Translations under genes and position numbers: made by a program
Notes under the pieces: model-generated
What the model saw: the letters and a program-made list of their open reading frames with translations, nothing else
What the model was told of the DNA's origin: nothing
The model's database searches: none
Origin: Parasphingorhabdus sp.
Lineage (GTDB): Bacteria > Pseudomonadota > Alphaproteobacteria > Sphingomonadales > Sphingomonadaceae
Direction: 5' to 3'
Assembly (NCBI RefSeq): GCF_965233695.1
Contig: NZ_OZ247497.1
Span: 2,495,277-2,559,276 of the forward strand
Length of the DNA stretch: 64,000 nt
Part shown: in pieces, positions 1,753 through 62,104 of the stretch
How the letters are laid out: every line of letters begins with the position of its first letter
Numbering within the stretch: the stretch's first letter is position 1

Positions 1753-2816
1753 AAGATGCTGATCCCATGAGCCCCGCTGGCGGCAACAATGGCGTTGAGG
1801 AACAAGCGGCCTATTGGTTCGCGCGATTGCGTGCGGACAATGCCAGCAAGGGAGATCAGAGGCGCTTCAAGGGCTGGTTGGAAGAGTGTCCACAGCATGC
1901 CGAAGCATATGCTTTGCAGGAAGAAGTCTGGACGGCAATGCAGGACTGCGCGGTGGACGACGATATCATGGCGATGCGGCAAAATGCCTTGGCGCAAAAC
2001 CCGTCCGCTGCAAATAACAATGTCTGGCTAAAATATGGCGCGATTGCTGCTACACTTCTGGTCCTGGCCGTTTCTGTAGTGATGCTAAACCCATTCGCCA
2101 ATTGGGATGGTTCCGGGTCCACTGCTCCCGCAGATCAATTGGCTGAAGCAGGGGCTCAGGAATCTCCGATCTATCGAACGGGCGTTGGGCAGCGATCAAC
2201 GGTGAACCTGCCCGATGGATCCGTGGTTGAACTGAACACGGACAGTCTGATCCAAGTCAATTACAGCGAAGCAGGTCGAGACGTGATCTTGCTGCGCGGT
2301 GAAGCGCTTTTTGAGGTGGCAAAGGATGTCAACCGTCCCTTTGTGGTTGAGGCAGACGACAAGTTGATAACCGCTATTGGAACATCCTTTTCTGTCAGGC
2401 GGTCGGATGATGAAGTACGGGTCACACTAATAGAAGGCATTGTAACGGTCGACAAAGAAAGCGGTGACGATGCCAATGCCGTCAGCACAAAACAAATGCG
2501 GCCGGGAGAGCAGCTCGTCGCAGCTGGTGATTTGCCGTTCAAGGTCAATGTCATCAACACCGCTACGGTTACGAGTTGGAAAGACGGCAGGTTGATTTTC
2601 GACAATGAACCGCTGGGTATGATTGTTGATGAAGTGAACCGCTACTCCACACGCAAACTTGTGGTGGGTGATTCTGCATTGGCCGACATGCGGGTTAGCG
2701 GTATTTTTCAGGTCGGCTCAATAGACAGTTTCGCTGCTGCGTTAGAGGCTTCTTTCCCGGTAAAGAACAGCGCTCCTGCGGATGAAGGCGACATTGTTCT
2801 CGATTGGAAAGAGTGA
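1749..2816 (+). CDS. FecR-family anti-sigma factor / transmembrane sensor
   Basis: EQAAYWFARL N-terminal motif, single TM segment, YRTGVGQRSTVNLPDGSVVELNTDS FecR domain, C-terminal SWKDGRLIFDNEPL. Confidence 0.93.
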   Translation: MKDADPMSPAGGNNGVEEQAAYWFARLRADNASKGDQRRFKGWLEECPQHAEAYALQEEVWTAMQDCAVDDDIMAMRQNALAQNPSAANNNVWLKYGAIAATLLVLAVSVVMLNPFANWDGSGSTAPADQLAEAGAQESPIYRTGVGQRSTVNLPDGSVVELNTDSLIQVNYSEAGRDVILLRGEALFEVAKDVNRPFVVEADDKLITAIGTSFSVRRSDDEVRVTLIEGIVTVDKESGDDANAVSTKQMRPGEQLVAAGDLPFKVNVINTATVTSWKDGRLIFDNEPLGMIVDEVNRYSTRKLVVGDSALADMRVSGIFQVGSIDSFAAALEASFPVKNSAPADEGDIVLDWKE

Positions 2817-2900
2817 CATTTAGTCACTGAAAAATAAGACTTTTGTCTACCAACATCACTTAATATAATACGATTTTTTTCTCTCAATCCGAAAAGATTA

Positions 2901-2928
2901 TGAGGAAAGCAGATGCTCGCGCGTCTTA
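2901..2928 (+). promoter_or_regulatory. Putative ECF-sigma promoter, TGAGG-N16-CGTCTTA, upstream of the TonB receptor
   Basis: TGAGG at 2901-2905 and CGTCTTA at 2922-2928; same motif and spacing at 6699-6726; CGT is a typical ECF -10 core. Confidence 0.65.
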
Positions 2929-2993
2929 CTTTACATCGGGCCAGTTAGCGGATGACTGACGGCCTGCAGGGAAAGATAAGACAGGGGATCATA

Positions 2994-5900
2994 ATGCAAT
3001 CTCGTTCGTTTAAACTGCTGCAGGCAGCGATGCTTACCGGTGCGGCCAATATCGCAATTGTCGGGTCGGCGCAGGCGCAGGACCAAGCCATGTCCTTCAA
3101 CATGCCCAGCCAGCCTTTGTCCTCCGCTTTGAGGGATTATGCTCTCAAGACCGGGAAAAACCTGGTCTATCCACCCAGCATGGTCGCGAACAAAAGGGCC
3201 AACGCTGTGTCCGGTCGTCATACGCCAAAACAGGCTTTGCGTTTGTTATTGAGAGGAACGTCTATTTCCTTTCGCGAGCTTGAGGGCAATGTTCTAGCGC
3301 TCACCGTGATTGGCAATTCGCGGCTCCGCCAAAATGCGGCCAACCCGGCGACTGTTTCTCCGGCGGTCGTACAGAGCGCTTCGGCCACTAGCGCAATGCA
3401 AGCCGATCCCGGTATTGATGATGGCCCGACCGGAGTGGTTTCCGGTACCGTCGTGAACAGGAGCACCGGAGCGGCGTTAAAAGGGGCGCTGGTGCGTATC
3501 GATGGCACAAATCTCGAAACGGTCACTGATGACCGCGGGCAATATTATTTTCCCGCAGTTCCCCGCGGCCAGCGTGTTGTGCGCGTCGAATATCTGGGTG
3601 AACAGACGCAAACCGCAATCGTTTCGGTCACCGCTGGATCACGTGAGCAAGCGAATATAGAGCTCGGTGCCGCCAATCAGGATATTGTCGTCTTCGGCTA
3701 TCGCAGTTCTATCCAACAAGCGCTGAACAAACAGAAAAATGCGGATAACAATGCGACGATTGTGTCCTCGGATTTGCTTGGCGGATTTCCAGCGGAGACG
3801 GTTTCCGAAGCGCTACGGCGTGTGCCGGGCGTTGCTTTTGGGCGGGATGATGAAACCGGGGAAGGATCGCGTATCACAGTTCGCGGGTTCAGCTCGGAAG
3901 CGATTAACGTGCAACTTAACGGCCTGGAAGTGCAAGGCACAGGATTTGAACGCACCGTCGATCTGAGCGGATTCCTGACGGACAATATTTCTGAAATTAC
4001 CATCCACAAATCCTTGTTGCCCAGCCATGAAGGGACGGGTTCTGGTGGACTGGTCGAGATTGAGACCAAGTCGGGGCTCGATTACGGGGATTTCTCGCTC
4101 AATCTTTCTGTCGAGGGCGAAACCAATTTCGACCGCGCCTTTGGTGAGGAGTATCAGATCAATGGAACGGTCGCAAAGAAGTTGACCGACAATTTCGGGA
4201 TTGCGGCGTCGCTACAATATCGGAAAACGGATCGGTTGAATTATACGGCATCGGTGGTCGACGTTATTCCTTCGGTTTTTCCCGTCGGTGCGACTTCTCT
4301 TTTTAACACGCCGGCAAGTCTTGAATTTCCGTTTGATCCGGAACTCGATCAACAACGGCTTATTACGAGCGCGCAATATGCCCGTACCGATCGCGCGGAA
4401 GAGGCCATAGTGGGTTCGGTGAACCTCGCATGGGATGTCGCGGATCATACCCGCTTCCGTTTGGACTTTCAGCGCAATGAGTCGAATATAGTTAGCAGTA
4501 GATCTACCTCTACTATTGGATATTCGTCTTTTTCTACCGATATGCCCATTCCGGAGCTGGACAATGAAGTGCGTCGGCGCGTGACGTTAAGGTCGTTGAA
4601 TCCGCGCCTCATACTTACATCGACGGATGAACAGCGCACGAGCGATAGTATCAGTTTTCGGGGCGACACGGATGTCGGGCGTTGGGAATTTGAATATAAG
4701 GCCGGTTATGGACGGTCCGAGTTCAAGGGGGATAATAGTTTCGTTAATTTCAACGCTGTGGCAACAAATCTGACGGATCTTATTGATCCCGAAACTATTG
4801 TGATCAATCCTGATGATGACGCCGCTGCAACTCCGCGGGTAGTCAATGGCGGGTTCGTTACGGCTGGTAACGGATTAATCATCCCATCGCTAACGCAGGC
4901 CGGAATTGATTTTGTAAACGATCCTTCTAATTACAATTTTTTCAACGCTGTCATTAACCCGATCGAGAATGTGACTGAAACTTATACTGGGGAGTTTCAG
5001 GCGCGATATAACACGCCTCTGGATTTTCTTGAATATATGGAACTGGGCGGCAAATACCAACGCAACACTCGTACTACCAATGACAATCCGTCCAATCCTC
5101 GGACGATCGCAAGTCAGCGATACACAAGGATTGCGAGCCTTCCCACACCTGTAACATTGTTCAATAACGGCACATTTGACCAGGACGGTCTTGCGAAATT
5201 AGGTGTATCAGAATTTTCCATTCCGTTTCTAAGTCCCTCAAATACAAGCAATATTGTTGATCAACTGCCAGATTTCATAACCGATGACCCTGCTACAGAT
5301 TTCAATGAGGCAAGGTTCACTTTCTTGGACTTCGCGGCGCTGGATCCGCTTGTAACGGGCGCTGCCCTAATACCTACCAAAACCATTGAAGAAAGATTTT
5401 CCGGCTATCTGGAATCAAAGCTTACCGTTGGTGATTTCGATCTTATTGCTGGCGTTCGCTATGAGAGGGAGAAGCGGTCCGGCGTAACCATTACTTCGCA
5501 GAGTTTCGTTTTGAACGAGCCAGGCAGGCGCAGCGAGCCCCGTGAAACATTTGTGGAAGCAGGCCTGGTCAGTTTCGACAGCACTTCTGGTTCGGTGGAT
5601 ACATGGACGCCCAGCTTTCTGCTGACCTATCGCCCGATTGAAAATTTCACCGCACGCCTCGGATATTTCCGTTCCACTATCAATCCGGATTTCCGGTTGC
5701 TAAACCGATCCACCACTTTCAGCGTTGACCTTCGCCCCCAATTTGCGCGTGTGACGATATTGGAAGCCAATCCCAGTCTGAAGCCGTCGACGACCGACAA
5801 TTTCGACCTGGATATTGCTTATTATTTCGATGACTCCCCCGGCCTGGTTCGCGCAGGCTTCTTCTATAAAAAGATCAGCAACAATTTTACTAATGTGTCC

Positions 5901-20439: not shown

Positions 20440-21513
20440 TTAACGCTTTCTAACGGTTCCATTAGCGACGCAGAAATGGAGCGCGTCATCCGGTATATCG
20501 ACGAACAGGGCCGCTTCCGTTCCGGTCAACCAGACCTGACCACCTTTACTCGACAGCTTTTCGAACAGCGCGGCCCTTCGGACGGGATCGAGATGGGCAG
20601 CGACCTCATCGAGCAAGAGAATCGGGCGATTTCCCCGCTGTTCAGCGATAAGATCGGCATGTGCCAATATGATCGAAAATAGCAGCGCTTTCTGTTCACC
20701 GGTGGAGCATTTTTCTGCCGGTTGTTTCTTGCCTGCATGAACCACGCTAAGGTCGGCACGGTGCGGTCCCGTCAACGTCCGGCCAGCGCGGCGGTCCGCC
20801 TGGCGACCTTTTGCAAGTGCTTGATGCAATGCTGATTCGCTGCGGAGATCCTTGTCATCCAGATATAGTTTTGCCGCCGCGAACAAACCGTCGTCGGTCA
20901 TCGCCAGAGCGCTATTCAATCCCTCGGTAATGCGAAAGCGCGCTTCGGCAACGGCGCTGCCAAATCCGGCCAGCTGCCCGTCAAGCGCGTCCAGCCATTC
21001 GCTGTCCGGCATATATTCATCCGCCAATAGCCGGTTCCGCTCCCGCCGTGCGGCATCATAACGGGCGCAGTTTCTGGCATGTTCCGGCTCCAGCGCCGTG
21101 ACGAGGCGATCCAGAAAATTACGCCGTCCCGATGCGCCTTCCATGAATAACCGGTCCATCGCTGGCGTGAGCCATAATATCGAAAGCCATTGGGCCAGGT
21201 CATTTGTCGGTACCGCCGCGCCATTTATCCGTGTTTTGCGGCGTTCGGGATGTTCCGGGCTTGTCCCGGTCCCAAGTTGGATATCGTCCAGCTGCGCAGC
21301 AACAGCGAAATCACCGATGCTGTCTTCATGGGCCATGTCTTTCAGGGCTGCCCGCCTTAGCCCGCGCCCCGGAGATAAAAGCGATACCGCCTCCAGGATG
21401 TTGGTCTTCCCAGCACCATTATCGCCGCTCAGCACGACAAACCCTGGCGCGGCCTCCAGCCGCAGCTGCCGATAGTTCCGGAAATTTTGCAGGGTGAGCT
21501 GAGAGATCGTCAT
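20440..21513 (-). CDS. recF: DNA replication/repair protein RecF
   Basis: FRNY, Walker [41 protein letters not shown]. Confidence 0.96.
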
Positions 21514-21610
21514 AACAGGCTTTAAACTCTAGCCTTCCCCCAGAGGGATGAGAAGAAAATTCGCCGCGCTTGCCAATGTTGTTCATCTATCATTCATTAA
21601 ATGCTAAAAG

Positions 21611-21629
21611 TTAGTGAAAAGCGCTAACT
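21611..21629 (+). promoter_or_regulatory. Putative PspF-type upstream activator sequence
   Basis: TTAGTGAAAAGCGCTAACT matches 16/19 to the E. coli pspA UAS as I recall it (TTAGTGTAATTCGCTAACT). It lies about 75-90 bp upstream of a -24/-12 promoter that precedes pspC. Confidence 0.6.
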
Positions 21630-21701
21630 ATCAGTTTTACGCAATTTGACAATTGGCCAAAAAATTGACTAAATATCTGAATAATAACAATAATCAAAAA
21701 C

Positions 21702-21717
21702 TGGCACGGCCTGTGCA
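21702..21717 (+). promoter_or_regulatory. Sigma54 (RpoN) -24/-12 promoter
   Basis: TGGCACGGCCTGTGCA: GG (21703-21704) and GC (21715-21716) are separated by exactly 10 nt; TGGCACG half-site is consensus; AT-rich stretch upstream. Confidence 0.75.
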
Positions 21718-21780
21718 ATGTATGAGACATCTTCGGAAACACAACAACGAAGCCCAGTTTTAAAAGAAAAGGAAATCAAA

Positions 21781-21900
21781 ATGTTCACGAATGTCTCAAA
21801 CAATATCGCCGCCGCTTTCGCCGCTCTTGTCTCTGCCGCCGTATTTGTCGGTGCCAGCGTTGGACCAGCGATCAACAATGCCGGTTCTCTTGTAATCTAA
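21781..21900 (+). CDS. 39-aa hydrophobic microprotein, copy 1
   Basis: RBS AAGGAAAT; MFTNVSNNIAAAFAALVSAAVFVGASVGPAINNAGSLVI; paralog directly downstream. Confidence 0.8.
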   Translation: MFTNVSNNIAAAFAALVSAAVFVGASVGPAINNAGSLVI

Positions 21901-21930
21901 TCCCAACCCAATCCCCTGAAAGGAAATATC

Positions 21931-22050
21931 ATGACCTACGAACTTAAAAACAAATTTCTCGCTTCTTTCGCCGCTCTGTTCTCCGCCGCAATTTTTGTCA
22001 GCGCAAGCGTTGCTCCTGCAATGAACGCTGCTGGTTCGATGGTGATCTGA
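21931..22050 (+). CDS. 39-aa hydrophobic microprotein, copy 2 (not in ORF track)
   Basis: RBS AAGGAAAT; MTYELKNKFLASFAALFSAAIFVSASVAPAMNAAGSMVI; 23/39 identical to copy 1 without gaps. Confidence 0.8.
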   Translation: MTYELKNKFLASFAALFSAAIFVSASVAPAMNAAGSMVI

Positions 22051-22133
22051 TGGCAAACGAGAAAAAGACCACCCGTTCTACGCCAACCAGCTGGCCGGAA
22101 CCGATTTCATCTAACAAAAGGAAAAACAGCCCA

Positions 22134-22313
22134 GTGAAAAACAAACTGAAACTCGACAAAGCCAATGGCAAGCTGATGGGCGTATGTTCCGGCCTTGCAA
22201 ATTGGAGCGGCATGGACGCTAATTTGCTGCGGATAATCTTCGTACTTGCGACAATTTTCGGCTTTGGTTCTGCCATCATCATCTATCTTGCGATCGGCCT
22301 GATTGTTGACTGA
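22134..22313 (+). CDS. pspC: PspC-domain membrane protein
   Basis: RBS AAGGAA before GTG 22134; KLKLDKANGKLMGVCSGLA...LLRIIFV...IIYLAIGLIV is the PspC signature. Confidence 0.85.
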   Translation: MKNKLKLDKANGKLMGVCSGLANWSGMDANLLRIIFVLATIFGFGSAIIIYLAIGLIVD

Positions 22314-22437
22314 TTAAAGATCCAGTGTCGCATGAATGATATAACATACAGAAAACATTGAATAATAATCATAGACCGCTCTGATAAATCCGTGTATTTA
22401 GTGACAACTAGTCATTGAGTAATTTATCGGAGCGCAG

Positions 22438-23418
22438 ATGTCCGACGGGTCCAATCATAGTCACGATCACCACGGACATCATGGCCATCACGGTCATCTC
22501 TTTCACAGTCATCACGATCGCCATGGCCCGCACGGCCATATGCCGACTAATTTCAGTCGTGCCTTCGCCTTCGGTATCACGCTCAATATCATCTACATCA
22601 TCGTCGAAGTTACCTTTGGCCTGCTATCCGGCTCGATGGCGCTGCTCGCCGATGCCGGACATAATTTGTCAGACGTTCTCGGGCTGGCCGTTGCATGGGC
22701 AGGGGCCGAGCTTTCAAAACGGCCGCCCAGCAAACAGTTCACTTATGGCCTGGGCGGATCTTCCATTTTGGCAGCGCTGTTAAATGGACTCTTTCTGCTG
22801 GTGGCTTGCGGTGCCATTGCCTGGGAGGCGATCGAGCGATTTAGTGCGCCGAGCGAGGTGGCATCGACAACAATCATCATTGTGGCATCGGTCGGTATCG
22901 TGATTAACTTCGGCACCGCCATGCTGTTCCTGCGCGGTCAGAAAGAAGATATAAATATTCGCGGCGCCTTTTTGCACATGATGGCCGATGCCGCGGTCTC
23001 CGCCGGAGTGGTTCTGGGCGGCATACTGATTTTCTATACCGGCAAGAACTGGATCGACCCGCTCATCAGCCTGTTCATCGTTGCGCTCATTTTCTGGAGC
23101 ACCTGGGGCTTGCTGACCGAAGCCATCCGGATGTCGCTGGCCGGCGTACCGCGCAATATTGACGTCGAGGAAGTCTTTGAAGCGCTGTCCGGACTGCCGG
23201 GGGTTGAGACGGTTCATGATCTGCATGTCTGGCCAATGAGCACCAGCGAAACCGCAATGACGGCTCATCTTGTCATTCCCGGCGGCCATCCCGGCAAGGG
23301 ATTTCTCGCGGATGTTCAGGCGGATATGAAGAAGCGCTTTTCCATTCATCACATCACTATCCAGATTGAGCTGGAGGATGAAGAGGCCGAGCTTTGTCAG
23401 ACGGATTGTGGCTCATAA
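22438..23418 (+). CDS. Cation diffusion facilitator (CzcD/ZitB-like Zn/Co/Cd exporter)
   Basis: His-rich N-terminus; ALLADAGHNLSD, AFLHMMAD and VHDLHVW motifs. Confidence 0.93.
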   Translation: MSDGSNHSHDHHGHHGHHGHLFHSHHDRHGPHGHMPTNFSRAFAFGITLNIIYIIVEVTFGLLSGSMALLADAGHNLSDVLGLAVAWAGAELSKRPPSKQFTYGLGGSSILAALLNGLFLLVACGAIAWEAIERFSAPSEVASTTIIIVASVGIVINFGTAMLFLRGQKEDINIRGAFLHMMADAAVSAGVVLGGILIFYTGKNWIDPLISLFIVALIFWSTWGLLTEAIRMSLAGVPRNIDVEEVFEALSGLPGVETVHDLHVWPMSTSETAMTAHLVIPGGHPGKGFLADVQADMKKRFSIHHITIQIELEDEEAELCQTDCGS

Positions 23419-60410: not shown

Positions 60411-60450
60411 TATGATACTGTTGCCAAAAGCGCAGCATGAGATGCAGGTT

Positions 60451-60467
60451 TAACCGTCAGCCGGATA
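60451..60467. promoter_or_regulatory. Palindromic operator candidate, site 4 (one mismatch)
   Basis: TAACCG-TCAGC-CGGATA in the divergent MFS / oxidoreductase intergenic region. Confidence 0.55.
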
Positions 60468-60523
60468 AGAAGTTTTGCTGCCCTCGTCATTTCCCTCGCG
60501 CTATCGCACAAAAGGGAATGAAT

Positions 60524-62104
60524 ATGGATGCCGACATAGCAAAAGGACAAGAAAGGCAAGGCTACAATGGCCTGGCTGCCATTTGTGGTACGGATGCGGT
60601 GACTACCGATGAAGCCCGCCTGCGCTACTTTTCGCAGGACCTGTTTTTTGAAGGTATCCTGCCGCTTGCAATTGTGAGTCCGGCAACCACCGATATGGTT
60701 GTCAGGATAGTTCAGTTCTGCCGAGCACAGGGTTGTGCAATTTTTCTGCGCGGTGGAGGCATGTCTTACACAAAGGCTTTCCAGCCTACATCTGCAAACG
60801 CCATCATGCTTGATTTTTCCAGGCTATCAGCCATTCGTGAGATATCGGTTGAGGATGGCCACGTCACGGTGGAAGCGGGCTGCACATGGGCTGCACTGGA
60901 TGAAGCACTTGCCAAGCATGACAGGCGCGCACGGTTTTGGGGACCCATGTCGGGGCGATCGGCAACAATTGGTGGCTCCATGAGTCAAGGGACTGTGACT
61001 TTTGGCTCTGGCACCAATGGTGCTTCGGCGAATGCCGTCAAAAGCTTCGAGGTGGTGACCGGTGCCGGTGAGCTGTTACACAGCGGCTCCGATGGTACGA
61101 CAGGAACACGGCCATTTAACCGCAATTTCGGGCCGGATTTGACGGGTATATTCGCCAATGATGCCGGGGCGCTGGGAATCAAGACAGCGGTGACCCTCGA
61201 AATTGAACCACGCCCGGCGCAGGTTAGCGGTCTGTCCTTTGCCTATGATGATTTCGATGCCATGGCGCAGCTGTTTTCCGATCTGTCCATGCGCCGTCTG
61301 TCATCGGAGATGATTGCAATGGATGGCGACGTCGCGCGACAAAATTCGGGCGCGCCTGATCTCTTGGAAGACGCAAAAGCGATGTGGCGTATTGGCAAGG
61401 CGGCCGGAAATCCATTGTCAGCCGTCGGCCGAATGTTTCGCATTGCAATGAGTGGGCGGCGATTTCTGGACAAGGCAAAATATACTGCGCATTTTGTGGT
61501 GGAAGGCCGGGACAAAGCAGAGCTTGAAAGCCGGATAAATGCCATTCGCGGATTTGCCAAATCAGGGGAGGAGATCGTCAATACCGTGCCGTTGATGACG
61601 CGCGCCGATCCGTTTCCGGTTCTGCCAGTGACGCATCCTGACGGCCGCCGGATGTTGCCGATCCATGGGGTGTTTCCTCAATCAGCATTGCAAGGTTTTC
61701 ATCAGGATTACCTATCCCTCAAGGCCAGTTTTGCCGAACGGATGACAGAGACGAACGTCACTATTGCGGAATTTTTTGCCGGTGTGGCGGGCATTGGATT
61801 GCTTTACGAACCCGTATTCTACTGGCCCGACAGCCTGTACGAATATCATAACCGCCTTACGCCTGATTATCTTGAAGGAAAAATGCCGGAGTTTCCGGAA
61901 AACCTGACGGCGCGGGAATTGGTCGGGGAGTTCGTGTCGGCTTTCAATGCGTTGGTGCATCAGCACGGCGGAACCCATTTTCAGATCGGGCGGCTCTACC
62001 CCTATACGGAAAATCGCGAAAGCGGTGCAGCCATGTTGCTTCGCGATCTCAAAACGTCACTGGATCCGGATAACATTATCAATCCGGGAGCGTTGGGCTT
62101 GTGA
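60524..62104 (+). CDS. FAD-binding oxidoreductase (PCMH/VAO-type, GlcD-like)
   Basis: RBS AAGGGA; RGGGMSY, ATIGG, VVTGAG, PDLTG, C-terminal LDPDNIINPG. Confidence 0.87.
   Translation: MDADIAKGQERQGYNGLAAICGTDAVTTDEARLRYFSQDLFFEGILPLAIVSPATTDMVVRIVQFCRAQGCAIFLRGGGMSYTKAFQPTSANAIMLDFSRLSAIREISVEDGHVTVEAGCTWAALDEALAKHDRRARFWGPMSGRSATIGGSMSQGTVTFGSGTNGASANAVKSFEVVTGAGELLHSGSDGTTGTRPFNRNFGPDLTGIFANDAGALGIKTAVTLEIEPRPAQVSGLSFAYDDFDAMAQLFSDLSMRRLSSEMIAMDGDVARQNSGAPDLLEDAKAMWRIGKAAGNPLSAVGRMFRIAMSGRRFLDKAKYTAHFVVEGRDKAELESRINAIRGFAKSGEEIVNTVPLMTRADPFPVLPVTHPDGRRMLPIHGVFPQSALQGFHQDYLSLKASFAERMTETNVTIAEFFAGVAGIGLLYEPVFYWPDSLYEYHNRLTPDYLEGKMPEFPENLTARELVGEFVSAFNALVHQHGGTHFQIGRLYPYTENRESGAAMLLRDLKTSLDPDNIINPGALGL

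Follow-up and report, generated by a model that had tools for sequence, protein, structure and literature searches.

A probable satellite operon of the phage-shock regulon encodes two membrane microproteins and a minimal PspC in Parasphingorhabdus

What does an enhancer of the phage-shock protein (Psp) type control where the genes that usually accompany it are missing? The Psp response serves as a model of how transcription depends on enhancers and how stressed membranes are repaired, and to our knowledge its regulon has been defined almost only in enterobacteria (pspABCDE, pspG). The question is raised by a plus-strand operon in a 64-kb stretch of DNA from a marine Parasphingorhabdus sp. (Sphingomonadaceae), hereafter the window, in whose positions all coordinates are given. 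Along this strand an enhancer, an AT-rich stretch, a -24/-12 promoter, a ribosome binding site (RBS), two 39-codon open reading frames (ORFs) and an 87-codon PspC ORF follow one another. A first-pass annotation had proposed the enhancer, the promoter, the two small ORFs and the short PspC, and we recovered each of them in the same place. It had also reported that pspA, pspB and pspF are missing from the window; phmmer searches of the 64 kb with the E. coli PspA, PspB, PspF and PspG proteins returned zero matches at E-values up to 10, and signature motifs of bacterial enhancer-binding proteins (bEBPs) such as GAFTGA are absent from it as well. The label satellite, which the annotation had given to the operon, is apt in view of this absence and of a second type of locus that carries microproteins only. 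We conclude that the locus is probably a satellite operon of the Psp envelope-stress regulon, with the microproteins among its inner-membrane effectors.

Enhancer and promoter of the operon

The enhancer, or upstream activating sequence (UAS), is a plus-strand block at positions 21603-21636, about -125 to -92 from the predicted transcription start site (TSS), in which four half-sites lie in register: CTA (21604-06)-N5-TAG (21612-14)-N9-CTA (21624-26)-N5-CAG (21632-34). The dyad TTAGTGAAAAGCGCTAACT (21611-21629) noticed at first forms the inner part of this block. Its match to the E. coli site, given as 16/19 in the first-pass annotation, holds on comparison with the MG1655 sequence: the intergenic region between pspF and pspA contains the pspA UAS TTAGTGTAATTCGCTAACT (locus L035, 1932-1950), and the window 19-mer is identical to it at 16 of 19 positions. 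With up to three mismatches allowed, the E. coli 19-mer occurs once in the window and not at all in 100 dinucleotide shuffles. A terminator-like call at 21609-21629 was rejected because upstream of it that strand contains no gene end and because relatives conserve the half-sites, not the stem.

The comparison covered 36 related loci of Sphingorhabdus/Parasphingorhabdus and further Sphingomonadales; scanning one genome per species yielded 32 loci, all of them in Sphingorhabdus, Parasphingorhabdus or other Sphingomonadaceae. Promoter and microproteins are kept in 36/36 loci, 17 of which also encode PspC; the rest carry microproteins only, followed by a convergent gene. Type I loci have the arrangement of the window, with recF divergent from two microprotein genes and pspC (e.g. 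L001, L003, L005-L009). Type II loci consist of one to four tandem microprotein genes without PspC and with the convergent gene downstream, and both types occur together in several genomes, for example in Sphingorhabdus sp. EL138 (L007, L027). In a metagenome contig (L036) and in Altererythrobacter xixiisoli (L037) the order of recF, divergent microprotein gene(s) and pspC is kept and the microproteins have diverged. The 10-kb flanks of distant microprotein genes contain no bEBP gene and no pspA. The same promoter drives the second, PspC-less type of locus, which points to the microproteins, not PspC, as the core cargo. In sequencing runs X1, X2 and X27, which contain the window sequence, a second contig matches window 21694-21720 and 21965-21992 and carries the same promoter and a microprotein gene between different flanks. 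A microprotein-only locus therefore lies elsewhere than in the window, in the source organism or in a relative from the same samples.

The UAS block aligns gap-free in 34 loci, with the consensus C[CT]A-N5-T[AG]G-N9-C[CT]A-N5-[CT][AG]G. A weight matrix made solely from 34 distinct Sphingomonadales UAS blocks was then run on the E. coli psp and pspG regions. In the 3.5 kb around E. coli psp, with 6936 positions scored, the top four all lie in the pspA enhancer region (L035 1904-1956), and within 4 kb around pspG the known pspG UAS ranks second to third of 7936 positions. The top score in the pspG region lies at the 3' end of dusA (L039 1620-1653), ~95 nt upstream of the known enhancer, and may represent an additional PspF site or chance.

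The sigma-54 type promoter TGGCACGGCCTGTGCA (21702-21717, plus strand; GG at 21703-04 and GC at 21715-16) differs by one mismatch from TGGCACG-N4-TTGCW. Chance alone would give 1.03 such matches in the window, so the match by itself is not significant, and the weight of the element comes from its conservation across loci. TGGCAC-N5-NTGC[AT] sits 78-81 nt before the first ATG in 36/36 related loci, TGGCAC and TGCA being invariant, and this invariance supports the earlier sigma-54 assignment. Usual promoter spacing places the predicted TSS at ~21727-21729. The AT-rich spacer holds a putative site for integration host factor (IHF), TAAATATCTGAAT (21670-21682, plus strand), for which the consensus is YAANNNNTTGATW, the reverse complement of WATCAANNNNTTR. 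An IHF-like match begins exactly 32 nt upstream of TGGCAC in 31/36 loci with a loose pattern and in 16/36 with the exact consensus. From the 34-nt UAS block through the promoter the upstream regions align without gaps, and every locus has 99-100 nt between the start of the block and TGGCAC (89 nt in E. coli).

This geometry was written as the pattern CYA-N5-TRG-N9-CYA-N44-A-N6-TG-N22-TGGCACG-N5-TGCA, which was derived from the microprotein loci alone and matches 34 loci in hand. Two "not this base" positions were added to exclude the microprotein leader, after which none of the loci in hand matched, and a metagenome collection was scanned with the result. The leader-excluding scan returned 12 loci, and because the pattern contained no psp gene information, the search is not circular. 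In two of these loci (L048 and L054) the divergent regulator passes the NCBIfam equivalog cut-off of TIGR02974 (PspF), with 468.8 and 465.7 bits against 443.55. Locus L045 comprises the first codons of a pspF-like gene, the promoter, an ORF of ~60 aa with one helix, pspA (TIGR02977, 275 bits against 242.95), pspB and pspC. The promoter is followed by a 61-aa one-helix ORF and then pspA in L054, and by a TonB_C-domain ORF and the start of pspA in L046, whose promoter is the same as that of L048. Microproteins follow it in two further loci: L049 encodes two of them, and L053 encodes two that are related to those of the window (E-values of 4e-4 and 2e-3, in a small search space) and then PspC. 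Judged by its geometry, the window promoter is of the kind found between pspF and pspA. Three independent tests, namely the 16/19 identity, the matrix run on E. coli sites and the metagenome scan, agree on the PspF type of the UAS that the first-pass annotation had suggested.

Other cargoes stand behind the same geometry in metagenome contigs. They are a secreted protein of 91-94 aa with two Cys and no Pfam family (L047, L051, L052), a 373-aa lipoprotein-like protein in low-GC contigs (L043, L050) and the TonB_C-domain protein between promoter and pspA (L046), and they are candidates for further members of the PspF regulon. A tblastn search of a plasmid collection with E. coli PspF and PspA gave matches almost all of which were enterobacterial plasmids, and exact look-ups of two proteins encoded near the ends of the window matched no record. 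The literature searched yielded no specific account of this operon or of psp in Sphingorhabdus/Parasphingorhabdus.

Microproteins, minimal PspC and leader

Microprotein A (39 aa, MFTNVSNNIAAAFAALVSAAVFVGASVGPAINNAGSLVI) is encoded at 21781-21900 of the plus strand behind an RBS (AGGA, 21770-21773), and its paralogue microprotein B (39 aa, MTYELKNKFLASFAALFSAAIFVSASVAPAMNAAGSMVI; 59% identical to A) at 21931-22050 of the same strand. Codon statistics from twelve type I loci support both ORFs as real genes under purifying selection. For microprotein A, the variable sites at codon positions 1/2/3 number 13/2/27 and synonymous and non-synonymous codon differences stand at 609:286, compared with 171:769 and 31:908 in the other two frames. 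The corresponding values for microprotein B are 14/5/31 and 791:385. Together with the absence of both proteins from Pfam and NCBIfam, these statistics uphold the proposal that the two ORFs are real and previously unassigned genes.

Each microprotein has a single hydrophobic stretch (Kyte-Doolittle 19-residue maxima of 2.27 for A and 2.07 for B), and AlphaFold2 predicts one helix spanning residues 2-38 with a mean pLDDT of 78.7. A polar, mostly uncharged N-terminus of ~8 residues is followed by an Ala/Ser/Gly-rich helix, the motif A-S-V-[GA]-P-A and ~9 further residues. This motif is the best-conserved part, and A14, A15, A19, S26 and P29 are invariant. Homologues are known as proteins of 38-40 aa encoded in one to four tandem copies per locus. 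An exhaustive profile search of 1.84 billion representative proteins returned 30 clusters only, all of small proteins that match at their C-terminal end, and no match was found in Pfam, NCBIfam (PspB and PspD models included) or the PDB. Where the sources name these proteins at all, they use a generic placeholder, mostly "hypothetical protein", and the genes are often unannotated. By these searches the microproteins form a narrow, undescribed and stand-alone family.

Microprotein B is found in every PspC-linked locus. Its stop overlaps the pspC start (ATCTGATG), and from this arrangement pspC appears translationally coupled to it. The minimal PspC (87 aa; 22050-22313, plus strand) matches Pfam PF04024 over residues 32-86 with 56.5 bits against a cut-off of 25 (E = 2.4e-15). 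Against TIGR02978 it scores 52.7 bits, with an equivalog cut-off of 104, and matches profile positions 3-59 of 121. The window protein has a single residue beyond its transmembrane helix, and 30/30 aligned homologues end in GL[IL][VA][DN]. Its N-terminus is a variable, Ser/Thr/Lys/Pro-rich and lineage-specific extension containing SWPEP. By profile and alignment the window protein is a PspC-domain protein without the C-terminal half and not a canonical PspC orthologue, in keeping with the short stand-alone PspC of the first-pass annotation. Throughout the type I loci the long frame, starting from the ATG in the TGATG overlap, survives indels, and the majority of database entries have 87 aa. 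An internal GTG at 22134 would give 59 aa and, as an internal GTG/ATG with its own AGGA is also conserved, a 59-aa form of PspC is possible.

The leader contains an inverted repeat, CTTCG-N12-CGAAG (21731-21752, plus strand; about +4 to +25), whose sequence is kept in Sphingorhabdus-type loci (CTTCGC/GCGAAG in relatives). Different palindromes occupy the same place in the leaders of L036 (TCCGG/CCGGA) and L037 (CAGGC/GCCTG). The repeat may function in the mRNA, as a 5' stem-loop, or in the DNA, as an operator. As a structured RNA the hairpin was set aside, being weak (-4.4 kcal/mol) and no better than shuffles (z not significant), and an Rfam search of 21500-22450 gave nothing near threshold. 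In four plastic-biofilm metatranscriptome runs, contigs jointly cover parts of 21742-22620 and continue from pspC into the CDF exporter gene downstream; recF is almost unassembled.

Regulation, function and alternative readings

Regulation of the operon by a PspF orthologue is, on these promoter features, probable, and the microproteins are likely new members of the PspF regulon. In this organism a PspF-type enhancer-binding protein, encoded elsewhere, would bind the four half-sites at 21603-21636. A bend at the IHF-like site (21670-21682) would allow the enhancer-bound protein to meet the sigma-54 RNA polymerase, closed on 21702-17, and ATP hydrolysis would open the promoter, with transcription from near 21728. 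The mRNA would carry the short 5' inverted repeat and encode the two paralogous 39-aa single-helix membrane microproteins and the 87-aa PspC. The microproteins may then serve, by analogy with E. coli PspG, as inner-membrane effectors produced on demand upon a stress signal that is presumably one of the envelope. Microprotein B, whose gene position is that of pspB in pspABC, could also be a stoichiometric partner of the truncated PspC.

Several observations weigh against this interpretation. Neither pspF, pspA nor rpoN lies within the 64-kb window. When contigs from runs X1, X2, X27 and X3 were compared with metagenomic pspF at 80% likeness, the matches at the depth of the organism were conserved AAA+ segments of 55-65 nt, which indicate bEBP-like genes but not PspF; a longer pspF match in those runs belonged to a different organism of lower depth. 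Neither phmmer nor the microprotein profile detects sequence similarity of the microproteins to PspB, PspD or PspG, so that the effector role is argued by analogy, and for the small ORFs ahead of pspA in L045 and L054 homology to the window microproteins was not detected. The putative IHF-like site of the window carries two mismatches to the consensus. The RNA contigs begin at 21742, not at 21728, and three of them end exactly there. We did not accept 21742 as the TSS, since branch points interrupt Logan contigs and paralogous loci and strains have this leader in common; the contig end is compatible with a start near 21728 and may equally be an assembly break at the conserved leader.

A bolder form of the effector role, which we consider doubtful, makes the microprotein helices the principal PspA-independent Psp effectors, produced in bulk from one to two PspF-dependent promoters. 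They would self-assemble or dock onto PspC and thereby seal or stiffen the damaged inner membrane. The helix possesses two small-residue faces, A11-A15-A19 and A20-G24-G28, and is followed by an invariant S-V-[GA]-P-A. In a more speculative variant, this motif, with small residues at -3/-1 and Pro at +1, would act as an uncleavable pseudo-substrate that occupies signal peptidase I during secretion stress.

It is unlikely, under the same PspF/sigma-54 regulation, that the microproteins and PspC instead constitute a minimal PspBC-like sensor that feeds back on PspF activity, for example via PspA or another partner. Microprotein B is encoded in the pspB position and coupled to pspC as E. coli pspB is, and the PspC domain is considered a sensor of membrane stress (PMC11237479). 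However, the window PspC is devoid of the entire C-terminal half of canonical PspC, and type II loci make microproteins without any PspC, which a bulk effector like the pspG product fits better.

We hold it to be quite improbable that another enhancer-binding protein, whose helix-turn-helix happens to recognise similar half-sites, acts on the promoter and that the operon responds to another signal such as metal stress. The search of the 64-kb window found no pspF for this genome, and the CDF gene at 22438-23418 follows the operon and is reached by RNA contigs that run on from pspC. Yet the same geometry lies between a true pspF and pspA in three distinct metagenome loci, the matrix recovers E. 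coli PspF sites specifically, and the CDF gene is not downstream in L036, L037 or the type II loci. A role of the small ORFs as toxic or exported peptides resembling type I toxins or bacteriocins, or as mere leader peptides tuning pspC translation, is very improbable: they are short, hydrophobic, tandemly duplicated (one to four copies per locus) and strongly conserved in their C-terminal AS-V-[GA]-P-A, but about 40 loci contain no antitoxin, export, immunity or modification genes, purifying selection extends along the whole peptide, type II loci lack a downstream gene on which a leader could act and the ORFs are co-transcribed with PspC from a stress-type promoter.

For a Psp satellite operon with effector microproteins, the reading we prefer, the implications are twofold. 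Between Gamma- and Alphaproteobacteria the enhancer code of PspF and the geometry of the promoter appear to be conserved, well enough for a matrix made in one class to detect sites in the other, and this conservation suggests that PspF regulons can be predicted from sequence across classes. In addition, the Sphingomonadales regulon appears to include membrane proteins of 38-40 aa that are sometimes the sole product of a PspF-type promoter. With three tiny genes and one promoter, the locus offers a compact system for the role of small Psp membrane proteins and for PspC-domain proteins without PspA.

Neighbouring elements and comparison with known psp systems

The operon is flanked by recF (20440-21513, minus strand; Pfam SMC_N and AAA families), a divergent neighbour outside the operon, and by the gene of a His-rich CDF exporter (22438-23418) downstream of pspC. 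Upstream of the CDF gene, the 72 nt at 22333-22404 are identical in L001 though the flanking genes differ by roughly 10%, and a sigma-70-like match (22341-22369) lies within this stretch, which is probably a metal-responsive operator/promoter. The alphaproteobacterial LexA (SOS) box has the form GTTC-N7-GTTC. On the recF side, GTTCATCTATCATTC (21581-21595), 7 nt from the PspF-type enhancer, fits [GA]TTC-N7-[GA]TTC and so comes close to the LexA form; a box of this type occupies the same position in 15/16 recF-adjacent Sphingorhabdus-type loci and in 0/18 microprotein-only loci, and it is probably an SOS operator of recF. The element GATGAGAAGAAAATTCGC (21548-21566), 35-55 nt upstream of the recF start, is constant in all recF-adjacent loci between variable flanks and is a possible promoter or 5'UTR element of recF; its core AAATTCGCC is also similar to the upstream UAS of E. 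coli pspA. A second loose -24/-12-like match in the window, TGGCACCAATGGTGCT (61009-61024), lies inside an ORF (60437-62104, FAD_binding_4), has no enhancer-like block and is probably due to chance.

Among known systems, the E. coli pspA promoter possesses two UASs and an IHF site and the pspG promoter one UAS (PMC3709507). The pspA promoter shares with the window the order of elements, the AT-rich bend region and a TGGCACG -24 element (PMC3709507). Three of the four half-sites are in register in its UAS (CCA-N5-TAG-N9-CTA), and its leader, like that of the window, has a short stem-loop near +5. In contrast to E. coli pspA, the divergent gene in the window is recF instead of pspF, the UAS lies 10 bp, or one helical turn, farther from the promoter and the cargo consists of two microproteins and a truncated PspC without PspA, PspB, PspD or PspE.

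Some Alphaproteobacteria possess pspFABC (PMC11237479). The alphaproteobacterial loci with pspF divergent from pspABC (L045, L046/L048, L054) have a UAS/IHF-like/sigma-54 geometry identical to that of the window, and in L045 and L054 a small single-helix ORF likewise comes first after the promoter. Unlike the window, these promoters lie beside pspF and their operons continue with pspA(BC). In Zymomonas, another member of the Sphingomonadales, the psp cluster ZMO1061-1065 contains a small ORF, ZMO1062, before pspA; pspA, pspB and pspC are ethanol-induced, and xylose media raise the expression of ZMO1062 to ZMO1065 (PMC3495753, PMC8645129). Canonical PspC (TIGR02978, about 120 aa) shares with the window PspC the domain and a conserved Arg that separates the amphipathic segment from the transmembrane helix (PMC11237479), whereas the window protein stops after the transmembrane helix and has the N-terminal SWPEP extension.

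E. coli pspG resembles the window operon in being unlinked to pspF and pspA and in having its own PspF-type UAS and sigma-54 promoter, and the type II loci, which encode small membrane protein(s) only, are its direct analogue. PspG itself differs from the microproteins: it is 80 aa long and hydrophobic along most of its length, whereas the microproteins have 38-40 aa, one helix and one to four tandem copies. E. coli pspB (2802-3026) and pspC (3026-3385; both L035) overlap in the same way as microprotein B and pspC do at 22050. The closest parallels are pspG, in the case of the microprotein-only loci, and pspBC, in that of the pair of microprotein B and PspC, neither of them homologous.

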